Shown here: piece after piece, positions 3,001 through 37,164 of the stretch
Numbering within the stretch: position 1 is the stretch's first letter
How the letters are laid out: each line of letters starts with the position of its first letter
Assembly (NCBI GenBank): GCA_963665235.2
Contig: CAXXLX010000002.1
Coordinates: forward strand, 96,001 to 160,000
Reading direction: 5' to 3'
DNA: 64,000 bases
DNA from: Candidatus Poribacteria bacterium
Lineage (GTDB): Bacteria > Poribacteria > WGA-4E > WGA-3G
The notes under the pieces: model-generated
The model's input: only the letters and a program-made list of their open reading frames with translations
The model's database searches: none
What the model was told of the DNA's origin: nothing
Made by a program: the position numbers and the translations under genes

Positions 3001-3882
3001 GATGATATGTCTGTGTTATCTGTGGTTTCTGAAGCCTTTGTGTTGCCACAGGCGGCATTTGCATTGATCCTACGAAGTCCGACAGTGTTCGGTGATATAG
3101 CCGGCAACTACTTTGAAGGGGACCGCCCAGAAACCGCCCCCGCGTTCACCGTAGACACGGCATGGGACCGCACCCAGCCGGTTGCCTTCGGGTATCGCGC
3201 CGAGGCGTGGGCAAAGAGCACCTATCAAAATGGGTTGGGCACCCCCGGCTATCTGTTACCCTCTAATAGAAGCGACCTGAACAGGGATGGGGTTGTGAAC
3301 ATCTTTGATTTAGTGTTAGTCGCCTCGCAATTCGGGACGACAAGCACAACTGCCGATCTGAATGGTGACGGCACTGTCAGCATGGCAGATTTAGCGTTAG
3401 TTGCCGGGGCGTTAGGTCCCGCTATCGGTGCACCAACAGCGAGTCAGTCCACTGCCGCGGTTGTCAACAATTGGCTGAAGCTTGCGCGTCAAAACGCATC
3501 AAATGTCGTGAAAACGTCTATCCCAGAAGGGTTCTCTTACGCCCGCGGGATACAGGTGCTTGAAGACTTAGCACGTGCGTTGACACCTGATGCAACCGCG
3601 CTCTTAGCGAACTATCCGAACCCGTTCAATCCAGAGACATGGATACCGTATCAGTTATCAAAAACGGCTGACGTAACGATAACGATATATGCGTCAGATG
3701 GGAACGTTGTTCGGACGTTAGCATTAGGGCATAGGGATGCGGGCATGTATAAGACCCGTAGTCAAGCCGCGTATTGGGATGGCAAAAATGCGTTCGGCGA
3801 GTCCGTAGCCAGCGGTGTGTATTTCTACACCCTCACCGCCGGTGACTTCTCCGCCACGCGCAAAATGCTCATCCTCAAATAA
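1..3882 (+). CDS. Large surface/secreted protein (5' truncated by window): about 9 Ig/cadherin-like repeats, lamin-tail domain, dockerin-like domain, C-terminal FlgD/T9SS-like domain
   Basis: Frame is open from base 1, inside a repeat. About 90-aa repeats NxAPxxxGTIP..D.S.YF.D.DGD.LTY..TITVTATD; IIFNELHN..DWLELRN (LTD); DLNRDGVVNIFDLV..DLNGDGTV (dockerin); LLANYPNPFNPETWIPYQL..SGVYFY..RKMLILK. Confidence 0.9.
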   Translation, partial: TVSMSSATATVTAISGGNATITVTATDPDGLTGTQTFSIHVPTPIPDQLLQLDGSGVSINLSLYFSWYLGFNLDATNTNSDVVGITLHRTDPPRISLTPKAAGTATITVTLNHNSKSFDVKVNKAPEANGTIPDGSPGIGGDAYSVDVSSYFTDANGDPLTYTAVSSDTTKATVSVSNSTVTVTGLVVGTATITVTATDPHNTSGTSTFTANVYQPNRAPVAEGTIADQKVKLSASTTTVDVSSYFSDADGDTLTYAVTSSDTGVATVSISNTTVTITLVATGTSAITVTATDPAGTSATQTFDAKVFDGPITVGTIPDKSLIAADGSDPNYIGSPVNLAAYFDAVDALTYTAVSSDTSKVTVSLSGTAVTLKPVSALSVGTATITVRATDPDAKYATQTFTVKVKGKPVPNGTIPSQTITIGGSSITINIGGYFIEPDGQTMTYTVNDSFLGGNEQVVYSISGNILTITPGSNPSTGTGIVTILAKDPDGLGGVQRFSLTVQSTTNNAPAASGTIPDSTKKVGHTAYSVDLSGYFSDDDGDTLTYTAISSDTTKATVSLSAATLTVTPVAAGTPTITATATDPSGAFATQSFTMTVRPANRAPVVSTEIPDQKIERRSGSGVTVDLPLGDYFSDADGDALTYTVKTTSGQHVVWAGFHPTRPSTTLSLVSMPTESPNDSGTTTVTVTATDTESESVSDSFTVTTSIPPTAVGTIPDVTVSPNGGSGTVALAGTFSDDDGDTLTYSASSSDTTKATTQIVSQPFFGVRIDGKNGGPVTVTVTATDPAGFTASHTIKVAVGNPPTTVGTIPNRTSKFGWGNINTDVSSYFNEPDGQALSYSASSSNTGVASVSVSGSTVTAKPQGTGNSTITVTASDPSGLTATQTFIVYILPGFADAIPGLSSEEQLLLGQLLTYDTIIFNELHNSSDDTNDWLELRNVSGADLPLDDWQLTVRTESGEAVIKFPAGTVIPAGDVLLLTNTAGGREQSSLLQEDGEMATADDMSVLSVVSEAFVLPQAAFALILRSPTVFGDIAGNYFEGDRPETAPAFTVDTAWDRTQPVAFGYRAEAWAKSTYQNGLGTPGYLLPSNRSDLNRDGVVNIFDLVLVASQFGTTSTTADLNGDGTVSMADLALVAGALGPAIGAPTASQSTAAVVNNWLKLARQNASNVVKTSIPEGFSYARGIQVLEDLARALTPDATALLANYPNPFNPETWIPYQLSKTADVTITIYASDGNVVRTLALGHRDAGMYKTRSQAAYWDGKNAFGESVASGVYFYTLTAGDFSATRKMLILK

Positions 3883-4077
3883 TTATTATTTGTCAGAATC
3901 GCGGAAAACACAGAGGACACAGAGGACACGGAAAGAAGAGGTTGTTTGCTAACCTGTCCGCATTTGTGAAGGGGAACTGAAATGCACAAAAGTCCCTTCC
4001 GCGTTTTCCGCGCATTCCGCGATTCAGACACAAAAGAGAGCAGAAGTTTAATAAATTTATTTAAGGAGAACATAATA

Positions 4078-7000
4078 ATGTTACGACAATGGAAAATCCT
4101 AATTATTTCTTTAGCATTAATCATCGTAGGTTCCGTTTTCATGCTAGGCGTTGACGAGGCATTCGCCGCGCCAAATCCGCCAAGCTCTTTCAGTGTATCC
4201 AACGTGACCAGTAAAGGCTTTAAAATCAGCTGGTCGGGTGGCCCGGGCTTTGGATGGTACGCTGACAAGTGGAACTTCCGACACCGAAAAAAGGGCGACA
4301 CAGACTGGACGGAGCAAGGTGAAGGTGGCTATGATTCAATTTCGATTTCTGGTCTAAAGGCAGCCACCACTTATGAATACCAAGTGAAGACTCTGGCCGG
4401 AACTTTTGGTTTTTTTAAGAAATGGACCAGCTGGTCGTCAACACAGGAGGCAACGACGAACAGTCCTCCACAGACGAAAGGGACCATGCCCAACAAAACG
4501 CTCAAAGTTGAGACTAACACGACAATAGATGTGAGCGGTTATTTCACCGATGCCGACAACGATACACTCACCTATGCGGCATCCGTAGAGAATACCGATG
4601 CAAACGTCAGCGTGAGCCTATCAGAGGCAACGTTAACCCTCACACCGGGCGCGAGTGTCGGGACAGCCACAGTCACGGTGACCGCCAGTGATGTGGACAG
4701 CACCGCCACGCAGACCTTCACGGCAACGGTGACTCCAAATCAGGCACCGCAGCCGGTGGGGACAATTCCGGACCAAACACTAAAGGTCGGTGGTACTGAC
4801 CATCTCGGACCTCTGGCAGTCGTTATAATTAATAATATAAGGTTCTATTTCAGCGACTCTGATGACCATACGTTAACCTATAGTGCAACCTCATCCGATA
4901 CGAGCATAGCCACAGTGAGTGTTGCAGAATCAACCTTTATGACCCAATTACTCACCAGGGCTGTAGGTGAGGGGTCGGCGACAATCACCGTCACAGCAAC
5001 GGATAGCCTCGGTGCCACCGCCACACAGACCTTCACGGCAACTGTGCAGCCAAACTCCGCACCGACCACGGTGGGCTCTATTCCTGCCCAAACGGTATCT
5101 TTGAGTGGATCCGCTGAGACAGTAGATGTGAGTAGTTACTTCAGCGATGCCGATAATAATCCGCTAACCTACACTGCAACCCCATCAGATACGAGCACAG
5201 CCACAGTGAATATCGTGGTGTCAGACGCAACGCTCACCATCATCCCAGTAGTTGCAGGGTCGGCGACAATCACCGTCACCGCAACGGATACCGCCAACGC
5301 AACTGCGACACAGACTATCTCTGTCACGGTCGTTACAAACCGAGCACCGGTGCCGGAGGGAACTATTCCAACCCAAACCTTGGGTGTCGGCGGCACAGCT
5401 GCGACAGTGGATATGAGTCCCTACTTCAGCGACCCCGATGGGAATTCACTAACCTATGTTGCAAGACCAGCCGATACGAGCATCGTCACAGTGACCCGGT
5501 CAGGGTCAACGTTCACCATCACACCCGTGGCTGCGGGCACGACGACAATCACCGCGCAGGCGAGTGATGACAGCAACGCATCCGTTACGCAGACCTTCTC
5601 TGTCACAGTCGTTTCAAATAGAACCCCGATCAAGGTGGGTACAATTTCGAGCCAATTGGCGAGAGTCGGTAGCACTGCTGTGACACTTGATGTGAGTCCC
5701 TACTTCAGCGACCGCGATGGACATACATTAACCTATAGCGCAACCTCATCTAGCACAAGCAGAGCTACAGTAAGCCTGTCAGGATCAACCGTAACCATCA
5801 CCGCAGTGGCTGCGGGGTGGTCAACAATAAGAGTGAAAGCCACAGACATCCACAACGCAAGTACCACACAGAGTTTCTCGGTCAAGGTCGTTGCAAGCGA
5901 CGCGGTGGTCCGTGTGGGTACAATTCCGGCACAAACGGTGGCACTGAGTGGAACTGGCGTTGCGACAGTGGATGTAAGTAATTACTTCAGCGGTCCCGAT
6001 GGCGATACGTTAACCTATAGTGCAACCTCATCCAGTACGAGCAGAGCCACAGTGAGCGTGTCAGACGCAACGGTAACCATCACCGGCGTAGCTGCGGGGT
6101 GGTCGACAATAAGGGTGACCGCGACAAATAGCAGCAACGCATCCGCTACACAGAGTTTCTCTACCAGGGTCTATGCAAACCGCGCACCGACCAAGGTGGG
6201 CACAATTCCGACGCTCAATACTGCTCAGACTTGGAATGAGCAGTTCGGCGTTAGCAGCTATTTCAGCGACCCCGATGGCAATACATTGACCTACGCCGCA
6301 AGCTCCTCTGATGACACTATAGCCGAGGCAGGCATTAGTAGCACGGATAGTTCGGCGGTGTATGTCTTCGGAAATGGTGTGGGAACAGCGACAATTACGG
6401 TAACGGCAACAGATCCAAGCAGTGCGACTGCTACGCAGACCTTCTCCGTTGAAGTCGCTGCCGAGGTACACCAGGTTGATGCCGTGCCGGGTCTCAGCAG
6501 CCAAGAAATATCGCAACTCGCGGCATTGCTCACATACAATACGGTTATCATCAATGAACTCCACAACGGTTCTGTTGATGCCACCGACTGGCTGGAACTC
6601 CGAAATGTCAGTGGTGCAGCACTTCCGTTGGACGACTATCAACTCACGATTCGAACGAGCAGAGGGAATGTGATCGTCCCGTTCCCCGCTGGCACGGTTA
6701 TCCCCGCAGGTGATGTCCTCCTACTCACCAACACAGCGGGAGGTCGCGAGCAAAGCTCGCTCCTACAAGAAGATGGCGAGATGGCAACAGCGGATGATAT
6801 GTCCGTGTTATCTGTGGTTTCTGAAAAGTTTGTGTTGCCACAAGCACCGTTTGCCTTAATCCTACGAAGTCCGACAGTGTTCGGTGATATCGCAGGGAAT
6901 TACGTTCAAGGCGAAGCCGTAGCACCGACCCCCGCATTCACCGTAGACACGGCATGGGACCGCACGCAGCCGGTTGGATTCGGGTATCGCGCCGAGGCGT

Positions 7001-7674
7001 GGGCAAAGAGCACGTATCAAAATGGACTCGGCTCCCCAGGCTATCATCCTATGATGCCATCAACGGATTTGAATAACGATGGGGTTGTGAACATCTTCGA
7101 TTTGGTGTTAGTCGCCTCACAGTTCGGGACGACAAGTGCAACCGCCGATTTGAATGGTGATGGCACTGTCAACATGGCAGATTTAGCGTTAGTTGCTGAT
7201 GCGTTAGGGCCCGCTATCGGTGCACCGACAGCGAATCGGTCTGCTGCCGCTGTCGTCAACAATTGGCTGCGTCTCGCACGTCAAAGCGAATCAAAAATTG
7301 TCAAAACCGCTATGCCAAAAGGTTTTTCCTACAGACGCGGGATACAGGTACTTGAAGAGTTAGCACGCGCGCTAACACCGGGGACAACCGCACTCTTAGC
7401 GAACTATCCGAACCCGTTCAATCCGGAGACATGGATACCGTATCAGTTATCAAAAACGGCTGACGTGACGGTAACCATCTATGCCTCGGATGGGAACGTT
7501 GTTCGGACGTTAGCATTAGGGCATAGGGATGCGGGCATGTATAAGACCCGTAGTCAAGCCGCGTATTGGGATGGCAAAAACGAGATAGGCGAGTCCGTAG
7601 CCAGCGGTGTGTATTTCTACACCCTCACCGCCGGTGACTTCTCCGCCACCCGCAAAATGCTCATCCTCAAATAA
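4078..7674 (+). CDS. Secreted FN3 + Ig-like repeat protein with LTD, dockerin-like and C-terminal sorting-like domain
   Basis: RBS AAGGAG before ATG 4078 (MLRQWKILIISLALII.., signal peptide); N-terminal FN3 (..GLKAATTYEYQV); Ig repeats; same C-terminal cassette. Confidence 0.9.
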   Translation: MLRQWKILIISLALIIVGSVFMLGVDEAFAAPNPPSSFSVSNVTSKGFKISWSGGPGFGWYADKWNFRHRKKGDTDWTEQGEGGYDSISISGLKAATTYEYQVKTLAGTFGFFKKWTSWSSTQEATTNSPPQTKGTMPNKTLKVETNTTIDVSGYFTDADNDTLTYAASVENTDANVSVSLSEATLTLTPGASVGTATVTVTASDVDSTATQTFTATVTPNQAPQPVGTIPDQTLKVGGTDHLGPLAVVIINNIRFYFSDSDDHTLTYSATSSDTSIATVSVAESTFMTQLLTRAVGEGSATITVTATDSLGATATQTFTATVQPNSAPTTVGSIPAQTVSLSGSAETVDVSSYFSDADNNPLTYTATPSDTSTATVNIVVSDATLTIIPVVAGSATITVTATDTANATATQTISVTVVTNRAPVPEGTIPTQTLGVGGTAATVDMSPYFSDPDGNSLTYVARPADTSIVTVTRSGSTFTITPVAAGTTTITAQASDDSNASVTQTFSVTVVSNRTPIKVGTISSQLARVGSTAVTLDVSPYFSDRDGHTLTYSATSSSTSRATVSLSGSTVTITAVAAGWSTIRVKATDIHNASTTQSFSVKVVASDAVVRVGTIPAQTVALSGTGVATVDVSNYFSGPDGDTLTYSATSSSTSRATVSVSDATVTITGVAAGWSTIRVTATNSSNASATQSFSTRVYANRAPTKVGTIPTLNTAQTWNEQFGVSSYFSDPDGNTLTYAASSSDDTIAEAGISSTDSSAVYVFGNGVGTATITVTATDPSSATATQTFSVEVAAEVHQVDAVPGLSSQEISQLAALLTYNTVIINELHNGSVDATDWLELRNVSGAALPLDDYQLTIRTSRGNVIVPFPAGTVIPAGDVLLLTNTAGGREQSSLLQEDGEMATADDMSVLSVVSEKFVLPQAPFALILRSPTVFGDIAGNYVQGEAVAPTPAFTVDTAWDRTQPVGFGYRAEAWAKSTYQNGLGSPGYHPMMPSTDLNNDGVVNIFDLVLVASQFGTTSATADLNGDGTVNMADLALVADALGPAIGAPTANRSAAAVVNNWLRLARQSESKIVKTAMPKGFSYRRGIQVLEELARALTPGTTALLANYPNPFNPETWIPYQLSKTADVTVTIYASDGNVVRTLALGHRDAGMYKTRSQAAYWDGKNEIGESVASGVYFYTLTAGDFSATRKMLILK

Positions 7675-7695
7675 TGTACTTAATCGGCGAGGTTT

Positions 7696-7725
7696 TGCGG
7701 CGTACTCGCCCAAATGCGACGTGCA
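7696..7725. repeat. 30-bp micro-insertion TGCGGCGTACTCGCCCAAATGCGACGTGCA (identical copies at 20802-20831, 33904-33933, 36390-36419)
   Basis: Four identical copies, each preceded by TT and followed by TTCA, lying inside two different host repeats. Confidence 0.85.
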
Positions 7726-7935
7726 TTCACAACCTCGCCAGCAATCGAGAGGGCGTAAATCCTAGCTATAACGCTAGCCTGAACTTTAAATATTAACCTA
7801 AGTTGCCACATAGTAGCATAATCTTCCAGATTGTGCATATGTGCCACATAGTAGCATAATCTTCATGAAGATTAAGAAATTAATTCGGTAATTTCTGTTT
7901 TTATGTTATCCTATTGTCCCAGGAGGTATTGTCTT

Positions 7936-12108: not shown

Positions 12109-12249
12109 CGTGCTTTAGGACTTCCGCCTTCCCCCCGCTTAAGAGCGGGCTGCTTGCCCGAATACTGGGGGGATAAAGGGGGGGTAAACAGCGATAAATA
12201 ATGTTTAATCGGCGAGGTTTTGACACCTCGCCACAACCTATTATCTTTT

Positions 12250-20695: not shown

Positions 20696-21123
20696 GCCCG
20701 AGCTGTGCCCACGCCTCTTATGTAGGAGCGTGCTGTGCACGCGACCTCTTATGTCCGAGCGTGCTGTGCACGCGATAAATGCTATTTAATCGGCGGGGTT
20801 TTGCGGCGTACTCGCCCAAATGCGACGTGCATTCACAACCTCGCCACAACCTATGTCCGTATCAGAAAATGCTCCTACTTTTAATCTTTAGGAGTTGCTT
20901 GTTTCTCATGAATTCTGATACAATACTGGATAAGTGTGAATCCGAAAAAAGCAACTCGCTTTTTAGGTTCAAATAGGGGGTGATTTCCCCTATTTACTTT
21001 ACCTGATATTATATCAATCTTGGGCACTTTGAACAAGCTAAAAACCTAATAAACACAAGCGTTTAAGGCGATTTAACAAATTTGCTCAAGTCCAAAACGA
21101 CTTATTCCGAAGGAGAAAATGAA

Positions 21124-24144: not shown

Positions 24145-24377
24145 CGTTAGGTCAGGCGAGGTGTCACAACCTCGCCATAGATAAATATTTCGGTAATCGG
24201 CGGGCAATGAATTGCTGCTACTACAAGCCTAATTGTTTGTAGTAAGGCGATTTATCGCCCGTTTCTCTTTTCAGCGAGAAACGCGAAACCTCTAATCAAC
24301 GTGAGTTTGAAAAAAGTTTTGACCCAGTATGAGGAGCGGACTGTGCGCCCGAATACTGGGCAAAAAGTTCCCTGCAT

Positions 24378-33265: not shown

Positions 33266-33269
33266 GAGT

Positions 33270-33532
33270 GAGCGTTGCTCGTTCTATTCTTCAGTAGGAG
33301 CGTGCTGTGCACGCGATAAAGCGAGCGTTGCTCGTTCTATTCTTCAGTAGGAGCGTGCTGTGCACGCGATAAAGCGAGCGTTGCTCGTTCTATTCTTCAG
33401 TAGGAGCGTGCTGTGCACGCGATAAAGCGAGCGTTGCTCGTTCTATTCTTCAGTAGGAGCGTGCTGTGCACGCGATAAAGCGAGCGTTGCTCGTTCTATT
33501 CTTCAGTAGGAGCGTGCTGTGCACGCGATAAA
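33270..33532. repeat. BIME-like tandem repeat, 5 x 53 bp with two hairpins (GCGAGC-GTT-GCTCG; GTAGGAGCGTGC-TGT-GCACGC)
   Basis: Five copies immediately after the stop codon; related units at 20700-20777 and 43950-44045. Confidence 0.9.
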
Positions 33533-34031
33533 TAATGTTTAATCGGCGAGGTTTTTCATAACCTCGCCCCAACCTAACATGGACAGTTTGTGCTATCTTT
33601 TGTAGCATAAACTGTCCAGTTTTTTCCAAAGAGTGTAAAGTTTTAGCACACCCGTTCAGTATTCGGGCAAACGGTTTCCCGCTCCTATAGTAGGGTGATT
33701 TATCACCCGTAGTGTTGTTAGTAGTAGGGTGATTTATCGCTTGTTCCCCTTTTCGGAATGCAGAAAAAACGCAAAACCCATAATCCCAAACCTTCGATTG
33801 TTACGTCTCTTAATTCCGTGTTCTCCGCGTCCTCCGCGCCTTCCGCGATTCAGACCCCTCTTAAATTCCGCGTCCTCCGCGTTCTCCGCGTTAATCCGCG
33901 ATTTGCGGCGTACTCGCCCAAATGCGACGTGCATTCAAACAACTTCTTCCCCTTCCATTCTTCCTGTTCCCCTTTTTCCGCCTGTTCGGACAGCGAGTTC
34001 GCCTTCCATTCTTCCATTCTTCCATTCCAAC

Positions 34032-36233: not shown

Positions 36234-36784
36234 ACATCGCTCCCCTAAGAAATTATTTTCATCTTACATCACTGCATTATATCACAAACCTCCGAATCCA
36301 TCAAAGTTAAAAAAACGCAAAACCTGTAATCACAAACCTTTGATTGTTACGCATCTTAAACTCCTCGTTCTCCGCGCTAATCCGCGATTTGCGGCGTACT
36401 CGCCCAAATGCGACGTGCATTCAGACAACTTCCCCCGCTTCCATCCTTCCATCCATCTTTTGTACAGAAACTTTACACCCCCCCTATAATGGGTGTGTAA
36501 AGTTTTTGTACAAGTAGGACGGACGCATTCCCCTCCGCTCCTCTACTAGCGGGATATCGGTATTAGTCCCAGTATTCGGGCAAGCAGCCCGCTCTTTAAG
36601 GACGATATCTTTATAGAAGCACAAAACGCACACCCTCTCTTAGTCCCAGTATTCGGGCAAGCAGCCCGCTCTTCAAGGACGATATCTTTATAGAATGAAA
36701 AAAATGTTGTGGATTATTACCATTTATTGCCCATCGCAGCCCTGATTCTCGTAGAAAAACGCATCGCGCATCACAACCCTATAC

Positions 36785-37164
36785 ACGCGAGCTTGATAAT
36801 AAATATCCATTTTCTCTAAACATTTTTGAGGTTCTCCGAAAAAAGCGGAATTGGAGCAGAAACCGCTGCTTCTATAAAGAATCGTCCTTGGAGAGCGGGA
36901 AACCGTTTGCCCGAATACTGGGACTAAGCGGGCAGAAACGGCTGCTTCTATAAAGATATCGTCCTTCGGGCTATTTCCCGAATACTGGGACTAAGAATCG
37001 GGGCGGAAACGGTTTTCTATAAAGATATCGTCCCTACGGGACTAAGAGGCGGGCAGAAACCGAGATGCCTATAAACATATCGTCCCTAAGGAGCGGGCTT
37101 CTCGCCCAGTATTCGAGCAACCAGCCCGCTCCTCATACTAGGGGAAAATTTTTCAAACTCACGT
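36785..37164. mobile_element. MITE family B copy (380 bp) filled with nested hairpin repeats
   Basis: TIRs ACGCGAGCTTGA / TCAAACTCACGT; 5-bp direct repeat TATAC on both sides. Confidence 0.75.

Follow-up and report, generated by a model that had tools for sequence, protein, structure and literature searches.

A 64,000-nt stretch of a Candidatus Poribacteria genome (hereafter the window; C2:96001-160000 of G000, the genome under study, which comprises 5.31 Mb in 4 contigs) carries four identical copies of a 30-nt sequence, TGCGGCGTACTCGCCCAAATGCGACGTGCA, at positions 7696, 20802, 33904 and 36390. We propose that this 30-mer, together with the T(T/C) that follows it, is a non-coding, non-autonomous micro-element of 32 nt that inserts with fixed polarity 3' of a T-run, an explanation that we consider the best overall and hold with moderate confidence. 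That the 32-mer is an independent insertion unit appears very likely, and it has recently been amplified, with 33 identical copies in G000. The comparison set comprised 41 genomes, i.e. G000 and 40 relatives; f1 denotes a family, g2 to g6 denote genera, L-numbers loci, and C1 and C2 contigs of the genome named.

Copies in the window and the genome

All four copies lie on the plus strand. They have 0 mismatches, as the first-pass annotation had reported, and no fifth copy was found in the window at up to 3 mismatches; 100 dinucleotide-preserving shuffles gave a mean of 0.00 matches. The same annotation placed two copies in the loops of GGCGAGG..CCTCGCC-type hairpins and two in a second repeat, pointed to empty forms of both, and saw no mobilising gene in the window, all of which our search reproduced. 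In the list below, ^ marks the boundary between host and element.

7696..7727, plus strand: copy 1 (30-mer and 3' TT, 32 nt), exact match, in the loop of a post-stop-codon hairpin, context GGCGAGGTTT^..^CACAACCTCGCC
7686..7739, plus strand: host hairpin GGCGAGG..CCTCGCC around copy 1, 12 nt past the stop codon of the open reading frame (ORF) 3982..7674
20802..20833, plus strand: copy 2, in the loop of hairpin GGCGGGG..CCTCGCC (20792-20845)
33904..33935, plus strand: copy 3, in the host repeat, context ..TCCGCGTTAATCCGCGATT^..^CAAACAAC..
36390..36421, plus strand: copy 4, in the host repeat, context ..CGCTAATCCGCGATT^..^CAGACAAC..
4017..4029, plus strand: empty host-repeat site CCGCGATTCAGAC (CCGCGATT^CAGAC), of which the genome holds 173
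33843..33855, plus strand: empty host-repeat site CCGCGATTCAGAC, 61 nt upstream of filled copy 3
24155..24176, plus strand: unoccupied hairpin GGCGAGGTGTCACAACCTCGCC in the window sequence, of the same family as the hairpins of copies 1 and 2
33545..33568, plus strand: unoccupied hairpin of the same family in the window sequence, whose TTTTTC loop could serve as a target

Copies 1 and 2 share the context GGCG(A/G)GGTTT-30-mer-TTCACAACCTCGCC and stand directly 3' of stop codons, and the host-hairpin region of copy 1 is predicted to fold as RNA at -27 kcal/mol (z -2.9). The unoccupied hairpin at 24155 is one base (G for T) away from GGTTTCACAACC, the predicted form before insertion, and further related unoccupied hairpins occur at 12211 and 17856. 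Copies 3 and 4 share the context ..CCGCGATT-30-mer-TTCA(A/G)AC...

Across G000, the 30-mer was found 77 times at up to 3 mismatches, with 0 matches to a reversed-pattern control, and 79 times at up to 4 mismatches. Exact matches account for 33 of these 79 copies, so that the earlier description of the sequence as invariant holds within the window and not genome-wide. The densest run of copies, C2:75725-132419, spans into the window and comprises 8 copies in 57 kb, all on the plus strand. Its copies separate very large genes, whose products of ~900-2400 aa have the C-terminus ..K/RMLILK, reminiscent of a sorting signal, and several copies closely precede the AAGGAG ribosome-binding sites of genes whose products begin with MLKR.

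Extent, target and polarity

Comparison of filled and empty sites in G000 indicates insertion of 32 nt, with TT on both sides. A composite repeat of ~250 bp, filled at C1:2512897 and empty at C1:2705157, is ~96% identical between the two loci and differs by one exact 32-nt gap; in a second set, C1:1546498, C2:205950 and C2:519960 are filled and differ likewise by 32 nt from the empty C1:818758. The host site CYGYGATTCWGAC is empty 173 times and filled 77 times in G000, and no other insert was ever observed there in this genome.

The first-pass annotation had read such pairs as a 30-bp insert with a TT target duplication at TT^CA. However, in the 254 copies on which our flank and variant statistics are based, the dinucleotide 3' of the 30-mer tracks a sequence variant inside the element rather than the left flank. 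Copies with CAAAT at positions 16-20 (n=204) have TT after the 30-mer in 202 cases, with a left flank of TT in 171 and TC in 29, whereas those with CAGAT at the same positions (n=42) have TC after the 30-mer in 41 cases and a left flank of TT in 42 of 42 (both types pooled, n=246: TT 213, TC 29). Left-flank TC is found where the empty host reads TTC. In G003, the filled locus L031 (CCCCCGCTTT^30-mer+TC^GCGGGGG) exceeds the empty locus L032 (CCCCCGCTTTGCGGGGG) by 32 nt and shows no duplication. Judged from these alignments, the true element is probably 32 nt long, ends in T(T/C), and inserts directly 3' of TT, TTT or TTC without truly duplicating its target; the seeming duplication of TT would arise because the element itself ends in TT. 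The unit insertion proposed earlier is thereby retained with a corrected length, and its TT-type site is widened to the rule nTT^C, TTT^ or TTC^. The opposite assignment, by which the left TT would be part of the element, is less likely, since it needs an extra substitution at L031/L032 and a changed target for one variant. Insertion is strictly polar: the T-run is 5' of the element in 254 of 254 copies, and reversed copies number 0.

The same data bear on whether the repeat is a conventional DDE-transposase miniature of 30 bp that has TGC..GCA ends and duplicates the 2 bp TT on insertion at TT^C. This reading would fit the G000 copies, all of which are flanked by TT on both sides and have empty sites with a single TT, and is compatible with hairpin B of the relatives (see below), which reads GGTTTCC when empty and GGTTT-30-mer-TTCC when filled. 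However, the linkage of the right dinucleotide to the internal variant, with TC in 41 of 42 CAGAT copies despite a left TT, does not agree with a duplication, and neither do the L031/L032 pair or the 29 of 204 CAAAT copies that combine a left TC with a right TT. The inverted ends measure just 3 nt, no longer element with these ends exists in G000, and staggered cutting by 2 bp at a short site would not alone suffice to fix the orientation to the flanks in every copy. We therefore regard a DDE-type miniature as highly improbable. Core-dinucleotide recombination in the style of IS110 or serine recombinases was rejected on the combination of left TT and right TC in the same 41 of 42 copies.

Distribution

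The element was detected in 12 of the 41 genomes, G000 included in both numbers, and all carriers belong to family f1: 9 of 9 genomes of g6, the single genome of g4, one of two of g5 (where the only copy is degenerate), and the genus to which the window belongs. It is absent from the 12 genomes of g2 and g3 and from the 16 genomes of three sister families. When prokaryotes were scanned with one genome for each species, at least 106 stretches were found, with an estimated ~980 in all. Among the 80 matches listed, 78 are titled Candidatus or uncultured Poribacteria and 2 'uncultured bacterium', and the element thus appears, among these listed matches, almost only in a group of Poribacteria-type genomes. 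Viral contigs gave 0 matches, and a full-text literature search for Poribacteria with REP, MITE or RAYT returned nothing relevant.

The 36 listed copies in G012 show a strand asymmetry, with 19 plus and 1 minus below 2.5 Mb and 3 plus and 13 minus above. Twenty 20-kb samples of G012 revealed no skew or gene-strand pattern, and dnaA is located at 0.56 Mb. Host hairpins are themselves strand-biased (48:11), so that no conclusion can be drawn from the strand bias of the element, and the GC skew of G000 is flat.

Contexts and nesting in relatives

Relatives contain the element in at least five contexts besides those of G000, including the loops of hairpins resembling repetitive extragenic palindromes (REPs), of which hundreds of empty copies exist. 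These REP-like loops are of the form GGTAGG-TKCGGTT-T^..^C(C)TAACCGMAC, i.e. GGTAGGTKCGGTTT^..^C(C)TAACCGMAC, and GCTGGCGAGGTTT^..^CCTAACCTCGCC. Other copies occupy GTAGTAG-YGCRAT..ATYGCRC hairpins, with empty forms AATTCATT and AATTTATT, the same CCGCGATT^CAGAC repeat as in G000, sites of the type ..ACAG(T/A/G)TT^..^(A/G)YGCTAC.., or a head-to-tail position on another copy; in G003 the sites are mostly unique. A rough sorting of 175 distinct copies from relatives assigned 53 to hairpin B, 39 to hairpin A, 12 to the ACAGTTT type, 11 to the host repeat, 8 to head-to-tail positions and 52 to other contexts, and about 20 of these 52 also appear to be of the ACAGTTT type as judged by eye. Empty GGTAGGTKCGGTTT^..^C(C)TAACCGMAC hairpins number 59 to 147 per genome in four g6 genomes and 3 in G003. 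Counts of empty hairpins by genome are as follows.

G009: 110 empty hairpin B (e.g. GGTAGGTTCGGTTTCCTAACCGAAC) and 25 empty hairpin A (GTAGTAGCGCAATT(C/T)ATTGCGC)
G012: 59 empty hairpin B and 11 empty hairpin A
G014: 147 empty hairpin B and 26 empty hairpin A
G024: 137 empty hairpin B and 17 empty hairpin A

The element also inserts into its own copies. At L023 and L038 of G003, one copy is found within the TATT^C loop of another, and in head-to-tail arrangements CAGAT-type copies are located directly behind the first T of a resident copy. G003 encodes the right-end motif 259 times compared with 26 full copies, and many of its copies are split by small hairpin-bearing inserts or have a loop one base longer. 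At L100-L119 of G003, the splitting inserts measure ~40 nt and include GTTGCGCGTGAAAAGCAAGCAACTTTTTTATTTCTTACTT and GGTAT..CCCCGCAAAGCGGGG..ACC units. A 32-mer in a REP loop can itself hold an insert between its two predicted hairpins (described below), an element of ~35-107 nt in G016 and G012. A micro-element inserted at this position, with a GAAGTGC-ATAA-GCACTTC hairpin and the end ..TTGATTC, was observed at 960-1130 of L094 (G016:C1:2368560-2371889) and at L234 and L241 (G012), where nesting is three levels deep, from REP loop to 32-mer to this micro-element.

The host repeat of G000 has a mosaic structure of its own, with tandem 9-mers 40 nt upstream of every host site genome-wide (in the window, e.g., 33810-33903 and 36360-36389). 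The 9-mer variants comprise TCCGCG (521), TCCGTG (136), TCTGTG (107) and TCTGCG (42), with opposite-strand TCCACG, TCCGCA and TCCACA totalling 7. This CG to TG change on one strand only points to transcript pairing that tolerates G.U or to strand-specific cytosine deamination. At 3880-4035 of the window, the host repeat occurs as an inverted pair, GTCAGAATCGCGGAAAACACAGAGGACACAGAGG ... CTTCCGCGTTTTCCGCGCATTCCGCGATTCAGAC, between co-directional genes and could form a long G.U-containing hairpin.

Independent insertion or passive copying

The 30/32-mer might instead have entered the host repeat or a REP hairpin once or a few times and have since spread only by copying of its host. In G000, 77 of the 79 copies have the left arm CCGCGATT or a near variant, and the other two are the hairpin copies of the window, a single hairpin family. 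All copies in this genome are thus confined to two host contexts, the very pattern that the first-pass annotation had named as evidence of passive copying, and co-amplification with the host repeat must explain part of the copy number. G000 also contains near-identical composite duplicates with 95-100% identical flanks (e.g. C1:1101231/C1:1266032 and C1:4337442/C2:878485), many g6 copies share hairpin-A or hairpin-B flanks, and G016 copies occur within REP arrays beside a RAYT gene. Together, these observations count against independent insertion. Contigs of four public short-read runs that hold the region end inside the element (e.g. at 33908 and 36395), so that no population-level polymorphism between filled and empty sites was seen in them, which carries no weight either way.

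However, the filled copies do not form a single clade of the host repeat, since the same sub-variants are common to filled and empty hosts: the filled to empty counts are 51:119 for TTCAGACA and 20:48 for TTCTGACA, and left-arm variants are likewise common to both. This shared spectrum and the contexts found in relatives argue against purely passive copying, as do the exact 32-nt differences within otherwise ~96% identical paralogues, the at least six context classes across genomes including the unique sites of G003, and the insertion of the element into its own copies. Conservation of the 30-mer (33 of 79 identical) is also far above that of the flanks beyond ~10 nt. We consider it unlikely that host copying alone has spread the element, and the earlier view of a very short, non-autonomous, recently active and nested element is upheld by the filled and empty paralogues, the independent contexts in relatives and the nesting. 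In G044 (g6), an orthologous intergenic flank lacks the element, with 11 unrelated bases at the junction, which documents an absence but not a precise boundary.

A third possibility is a functional module, i.e. a protein-binding site or a structural signal in RNA or DNA, that is kept by selection and spread by gene conversion. Strong conservation across three or more genera, including a compensatory change in a stem (see below), would agree with such a role. Based on crude ORF calls, 70 of the 79 copies in G000 are extragenic and 9 are inside ORFs, convergent-gene gaps are depleted (5 of the 70 extragenic copies), and some copies are located just upstream of ribosome-binding sites (C2:75725, 88066 and 95149), as might also be expected of a regulatory signal. 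However, neither orientation nor distance relative to genes is fixed among the 79 copies, the contexts are very different and include the element's own copies, and copies are split by other inserts. Gene conversion requires flanking homology, whereas the unique sites of G003 and the hairpin loops offer only 2-4 nt. The window has no Rfam family match. A functional module is therefore quite unlikely, and we favour the mobile micro-element.

Predicted structure

As single-stranded DNA, the 30-mer is predicted to fold into two small hairpins, GGCG-TACT-CGCC (hairpin 1) and TGC-GACGT-GCA (hairpin 2), with a DNA fold in context of -10.7 kcal/mol (z -2.5). Among 78 distinct 32-mers, the set used for all structure statistics, pair 6-13 is C-G in 67, T-A in 5 and T-G in 3. 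The T-A form corresponds to a GGTG..CACC sublineage with many copies in G009 and G024. The variable columns (8-11, 18, 24-27 and 32) coincide with the predicted loops, the linker and the 3' end. Hairpin 1 is thus moderately supported by one covarying pair, which probably reflects one evolutionary event, whereas hairpin 2 is invariant, and the two are not alike.

The minimum-energy RNA fold provides an alternative that contains the TCGC/GCGA stem favoured by the first-pass annotation. This alternative fold has non-standard pairs in 15 of 78 (10-26) and 21 of 78 (11-24) sequences, and its pair 13-22 is broken in the T-A sublineage, in which GGCG/CGCC is kept by a compensatory change; the TCGC/GCGA stem is therefore not supported. 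The TGC..GCA ends described in the same annotation exist as a 3-nt inversion, but the structure appears to consist of the two small hairpins, GGCG-loop-CGCC and TGC-loop-GCA.

Candidate mechanism and enzymes

Polar, duplication-free insertion with hairpins is the pattern of single-strand HUH Y1 transposition in IS200/IS605 and REP/RAYT systems. The lack of inverted repeats and duplications, the polarity, insertion 3' of an oligonucleotide, the hairpin ends and the tiny size of the 32-mer resemble this signature. We therefore tentatively suggest, by analogy, a mechanism of this chemistry as one plausible route. The 32-mer would be moved in trans as a single strand by an HUH/Y1 enzyme, either an IS200/IS605 TnpA or a REP-associated RAYT, by 'peel and paste', and would insert as a unit with fixed polarity directly 3' of a short T-run (..TT^, ..TTT^ or ..TTC^). 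Preferred targets are places prone to single-strandedness, namely the loops of REP-like hairpins, the abundant mosaic repeat that dominates among the targets in G000 (..TCCGCG-9-mers..CCGCGATT^CAGACAA..) and the loop or edge of other copies. A 32-nt single-strand circle would be feasible as an intermediate, whereas a 32-bp double-stranded circle is sterically implausible.

G000 encodes 13 Y1_Tnp matches in four groups, two of the IS200/IS605 type and two RAYT-like (classes C and D). The IS200/IS605 groups are ~1.8 kb long, comprise tnpA and a second gene, and occur at C1:3153021-3154830 and C1:544447-546276 and in paralogues; in several tnpA copies the HUH histidine is replaced (DPVHLL vs DHVHLL). 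Both groups were rejected as a source of the element since their ends are unrelated to the 32-mer. The class C gene (G000:C1:1178425-1178895) is flanked by TTCTATAAATATATCGTCCCTACGGGACTA units. A second REP family, TTCTATAAA(T/G)ATATCGTCCCTACGGGACTA, has 312 core matches in G000, flanks the class C gene (C1:1178361-1179746) and fills the intergenic region at 36500-37110 of the window. The class D gene (C1:831718-832188) is flanked by ~25 GTAGGAGCGTGCTGTGCACGCGA REPs. A classical GTAG-type REP, GTAGGAGCGTGC-TGT-GCACGCGA, is arrayed in tandem units of ~60 nt in the window (33267-33535 and 20725-20790), and ~25 copies plus inverted copies of it flank the class D gene (G000:C1:831500-833100), forming a REPtron. 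Class C is present in 10 of the 12 element-bearing genomes, not being found in G008, which has one degenerate copy of the element, or in G014, an assembly of 400 contigs. The phyletic profiles of classes C and D do not discriminate carriers from non-carriers, and on this basis neither was accepted as the enzyme.

Several observations weigh against the proposed element and its single-strand movement. Class C is also encoded in 13 of 29 element-free genomes, in addition to not being found in G014 and G008, and class D was found in 7 of the 12 element-bearing genomes and not in G003, which has the richest element population. In G000, the surroundings of 8 Y1 genes are free of the element out to 1.5 kb, and 20 of 21 Y1 loci in five relatives have none, the exception (L094) carrying it only as a passenger inside that RAYT's own REPs; the class C flanks of G003 contain other REPs and no element. 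The Y1 classes of G000 are each already paired with distinct hairpins of their own. The first-pass annotation had suggested a search for longer elements with the same ends next to a transposase or HUH nuclease; G000 contains none, nor solo half-sites bounding one, and in a 7% sample of G012 half-sites occurred only as split copies or by chance. An intact hairpin 1 is not an absolute requirement, given that a variant with a G.A mismatch (..CTCGACC..) was amplified in G012, and the invariance that backs hairpin 2 is uninformative either way. The assignment of the left TT to the element is countered solely by the comparison of paralogues, and no usable skew or gene-strand signal was available to relate the element to the replication strand. 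The class C RAYT-like gene is consequently the least-excluded candidate enzyme and nothing beyond that, no enzyme having been linked to the element.

Insertion could alternatively be template-directed, with a reverse transcriptase or polymerase copying a small RNA or DNA template onto a TT 3' end, so that the terminal TT would be template-derived in a telomerase-like manner. Such a process would likewise account for the constant length of 32 nt, the strict polarity, the lack of a duplication and the linkage of the 3' dinucleotide to the variant, and insertion of a templated type has reportedly been discussed along such lines for cyanobacterial SDR elements. However, G000 contains no template locus or longer source copy, none of the data require templating, and no reverse transcriptase was linked to the element, none having been searched for. 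We consider this route very unlikely and retain single-strand transposition as our tentative mechanism.

Implications

The 32-mer ranks among the smallest bacterial insertion elements observed. Its size is below the usual limit of miniature transposons, and the question of how mobile DNA of such a size moves dates from the description of very small cyanobacterial repeats. More speculatively, it could be part of a 'nano-transposon' ecosystem, in which hairpins of ~30-40 nt that lack inverted ends and duplications would enter, as single strands, the loops of REPs, of one another and of their own copies, served in trans by an off-GTAG RAYT-like or an unrecognised enzyme. In that case, no bacterial mobile DNA with a defined target rule would be smaller than the 32-mer, which would also provide a sequence-defined system for settling how very small repeats of the SDR type move. 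The target rule, the variant-linked 3' end, the abundant empty sites and the layered nesting translate into concrete oligonucleotide substrates for HUH/RAYT enzymes. On the practical side, short-read assemblies break at the element and its hosts, which also mark a lineage of the sponge-symbiont type and reshape gene-adjacent regions.

Comparison with known systems

The 32-mer resembles REP/REPIN-RAYT systems in being a ~30-nt imperfect hairpin that is extragenic, non-coding, present in tens to hundreds of copies and presumably moved in trans as single-stranded DNA, and the same genomes hold classical RAYT genes flanked by their own GTAG-type REP arrays. A conserved GTAG tetranucleotide beside the hairpin is a feature of REP/RAYT systems. 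The genuine REPs of these genomes have it, whereas the 32-mer and its reverse complement do not. Furthermore, the 32-mer flanks no Y1 gene as a cognate repeat, occurs as singlets and not as inverted doublets (the few close pairs, such as C1:4355128/4355238, are direct), and enters REP loops rather than being a REP.

With IS200/IS605 elements and their miniature derivatives (PATEs), the 32-mer shares the lack of terminal inverted repeats and target duplication and a fixed orientation of insertion behind a short specific oligonucleotide, and small hairpins are predicted near both of its ends. However, its ends are unrelated to the CCCCC..GCTTTAGC..GGGGG-like hairpins of the G000 groups, its target is just a T-run, and PATEs usually measure ~100 nt or more. 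The two end hairpins of IS608 are alike, unlike those of the 32-mer. The 32-mer therefore lacks the features that define REPs and IS200/IS605 miniatures, as it has no GTAG, flanks no RAYT, forms no doublets and shares no ends with an autonomous element. Miniature inverted-repeat transposable elements (MITEs) of the DDE type have inverted repeats of ~10 nt or longer, in place of which the 32-mer has a 3-nt TGC..GCA, and its flanking dinucleotides do not form a duplication in CAGAT copies or in 29 of the 204 CAAAT copies. A preference for the loops of REP-like hairpins is shared with IS1397/ISKpn1 and the IS110/IS1111 group, but these are kilobase elements with their own transposase, and the identical core dinucleotide on both sides that is typical of IS110-type insertion fails for the 32-mer.

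To our knowledge, no enzyme has been assigned to the SDR elements of Nostoc. The small dispersed repeats SDR4-6 of Nostoc (Elhai et al. 2008, Genome Res 18:1484, as cited in PMC5861425) are reportedly mobile-like repeats of 21-27 nt that are nested mutually and in short tandem repeats and have a common hairpin. The 32-mer is similar by this description, since it nests in itself and in other micro-repeats and adjoins the tandem TCCGCG 9-mers in G000. It differs in phylum, belonging to Poribacteria-type genomes rather than cyanobacteria, and in having a target rule and a variant-linked 3' dinucleotide that can be defined. REPs and the cyanobacterial SDR elements are its nearest precedents, of which the SDR elements, judged by description, appear to be its closest counterparts in behaviour, and the 32-mer belongs among the very small structured mobile repeats as a real, lineage-wide and recently active member.

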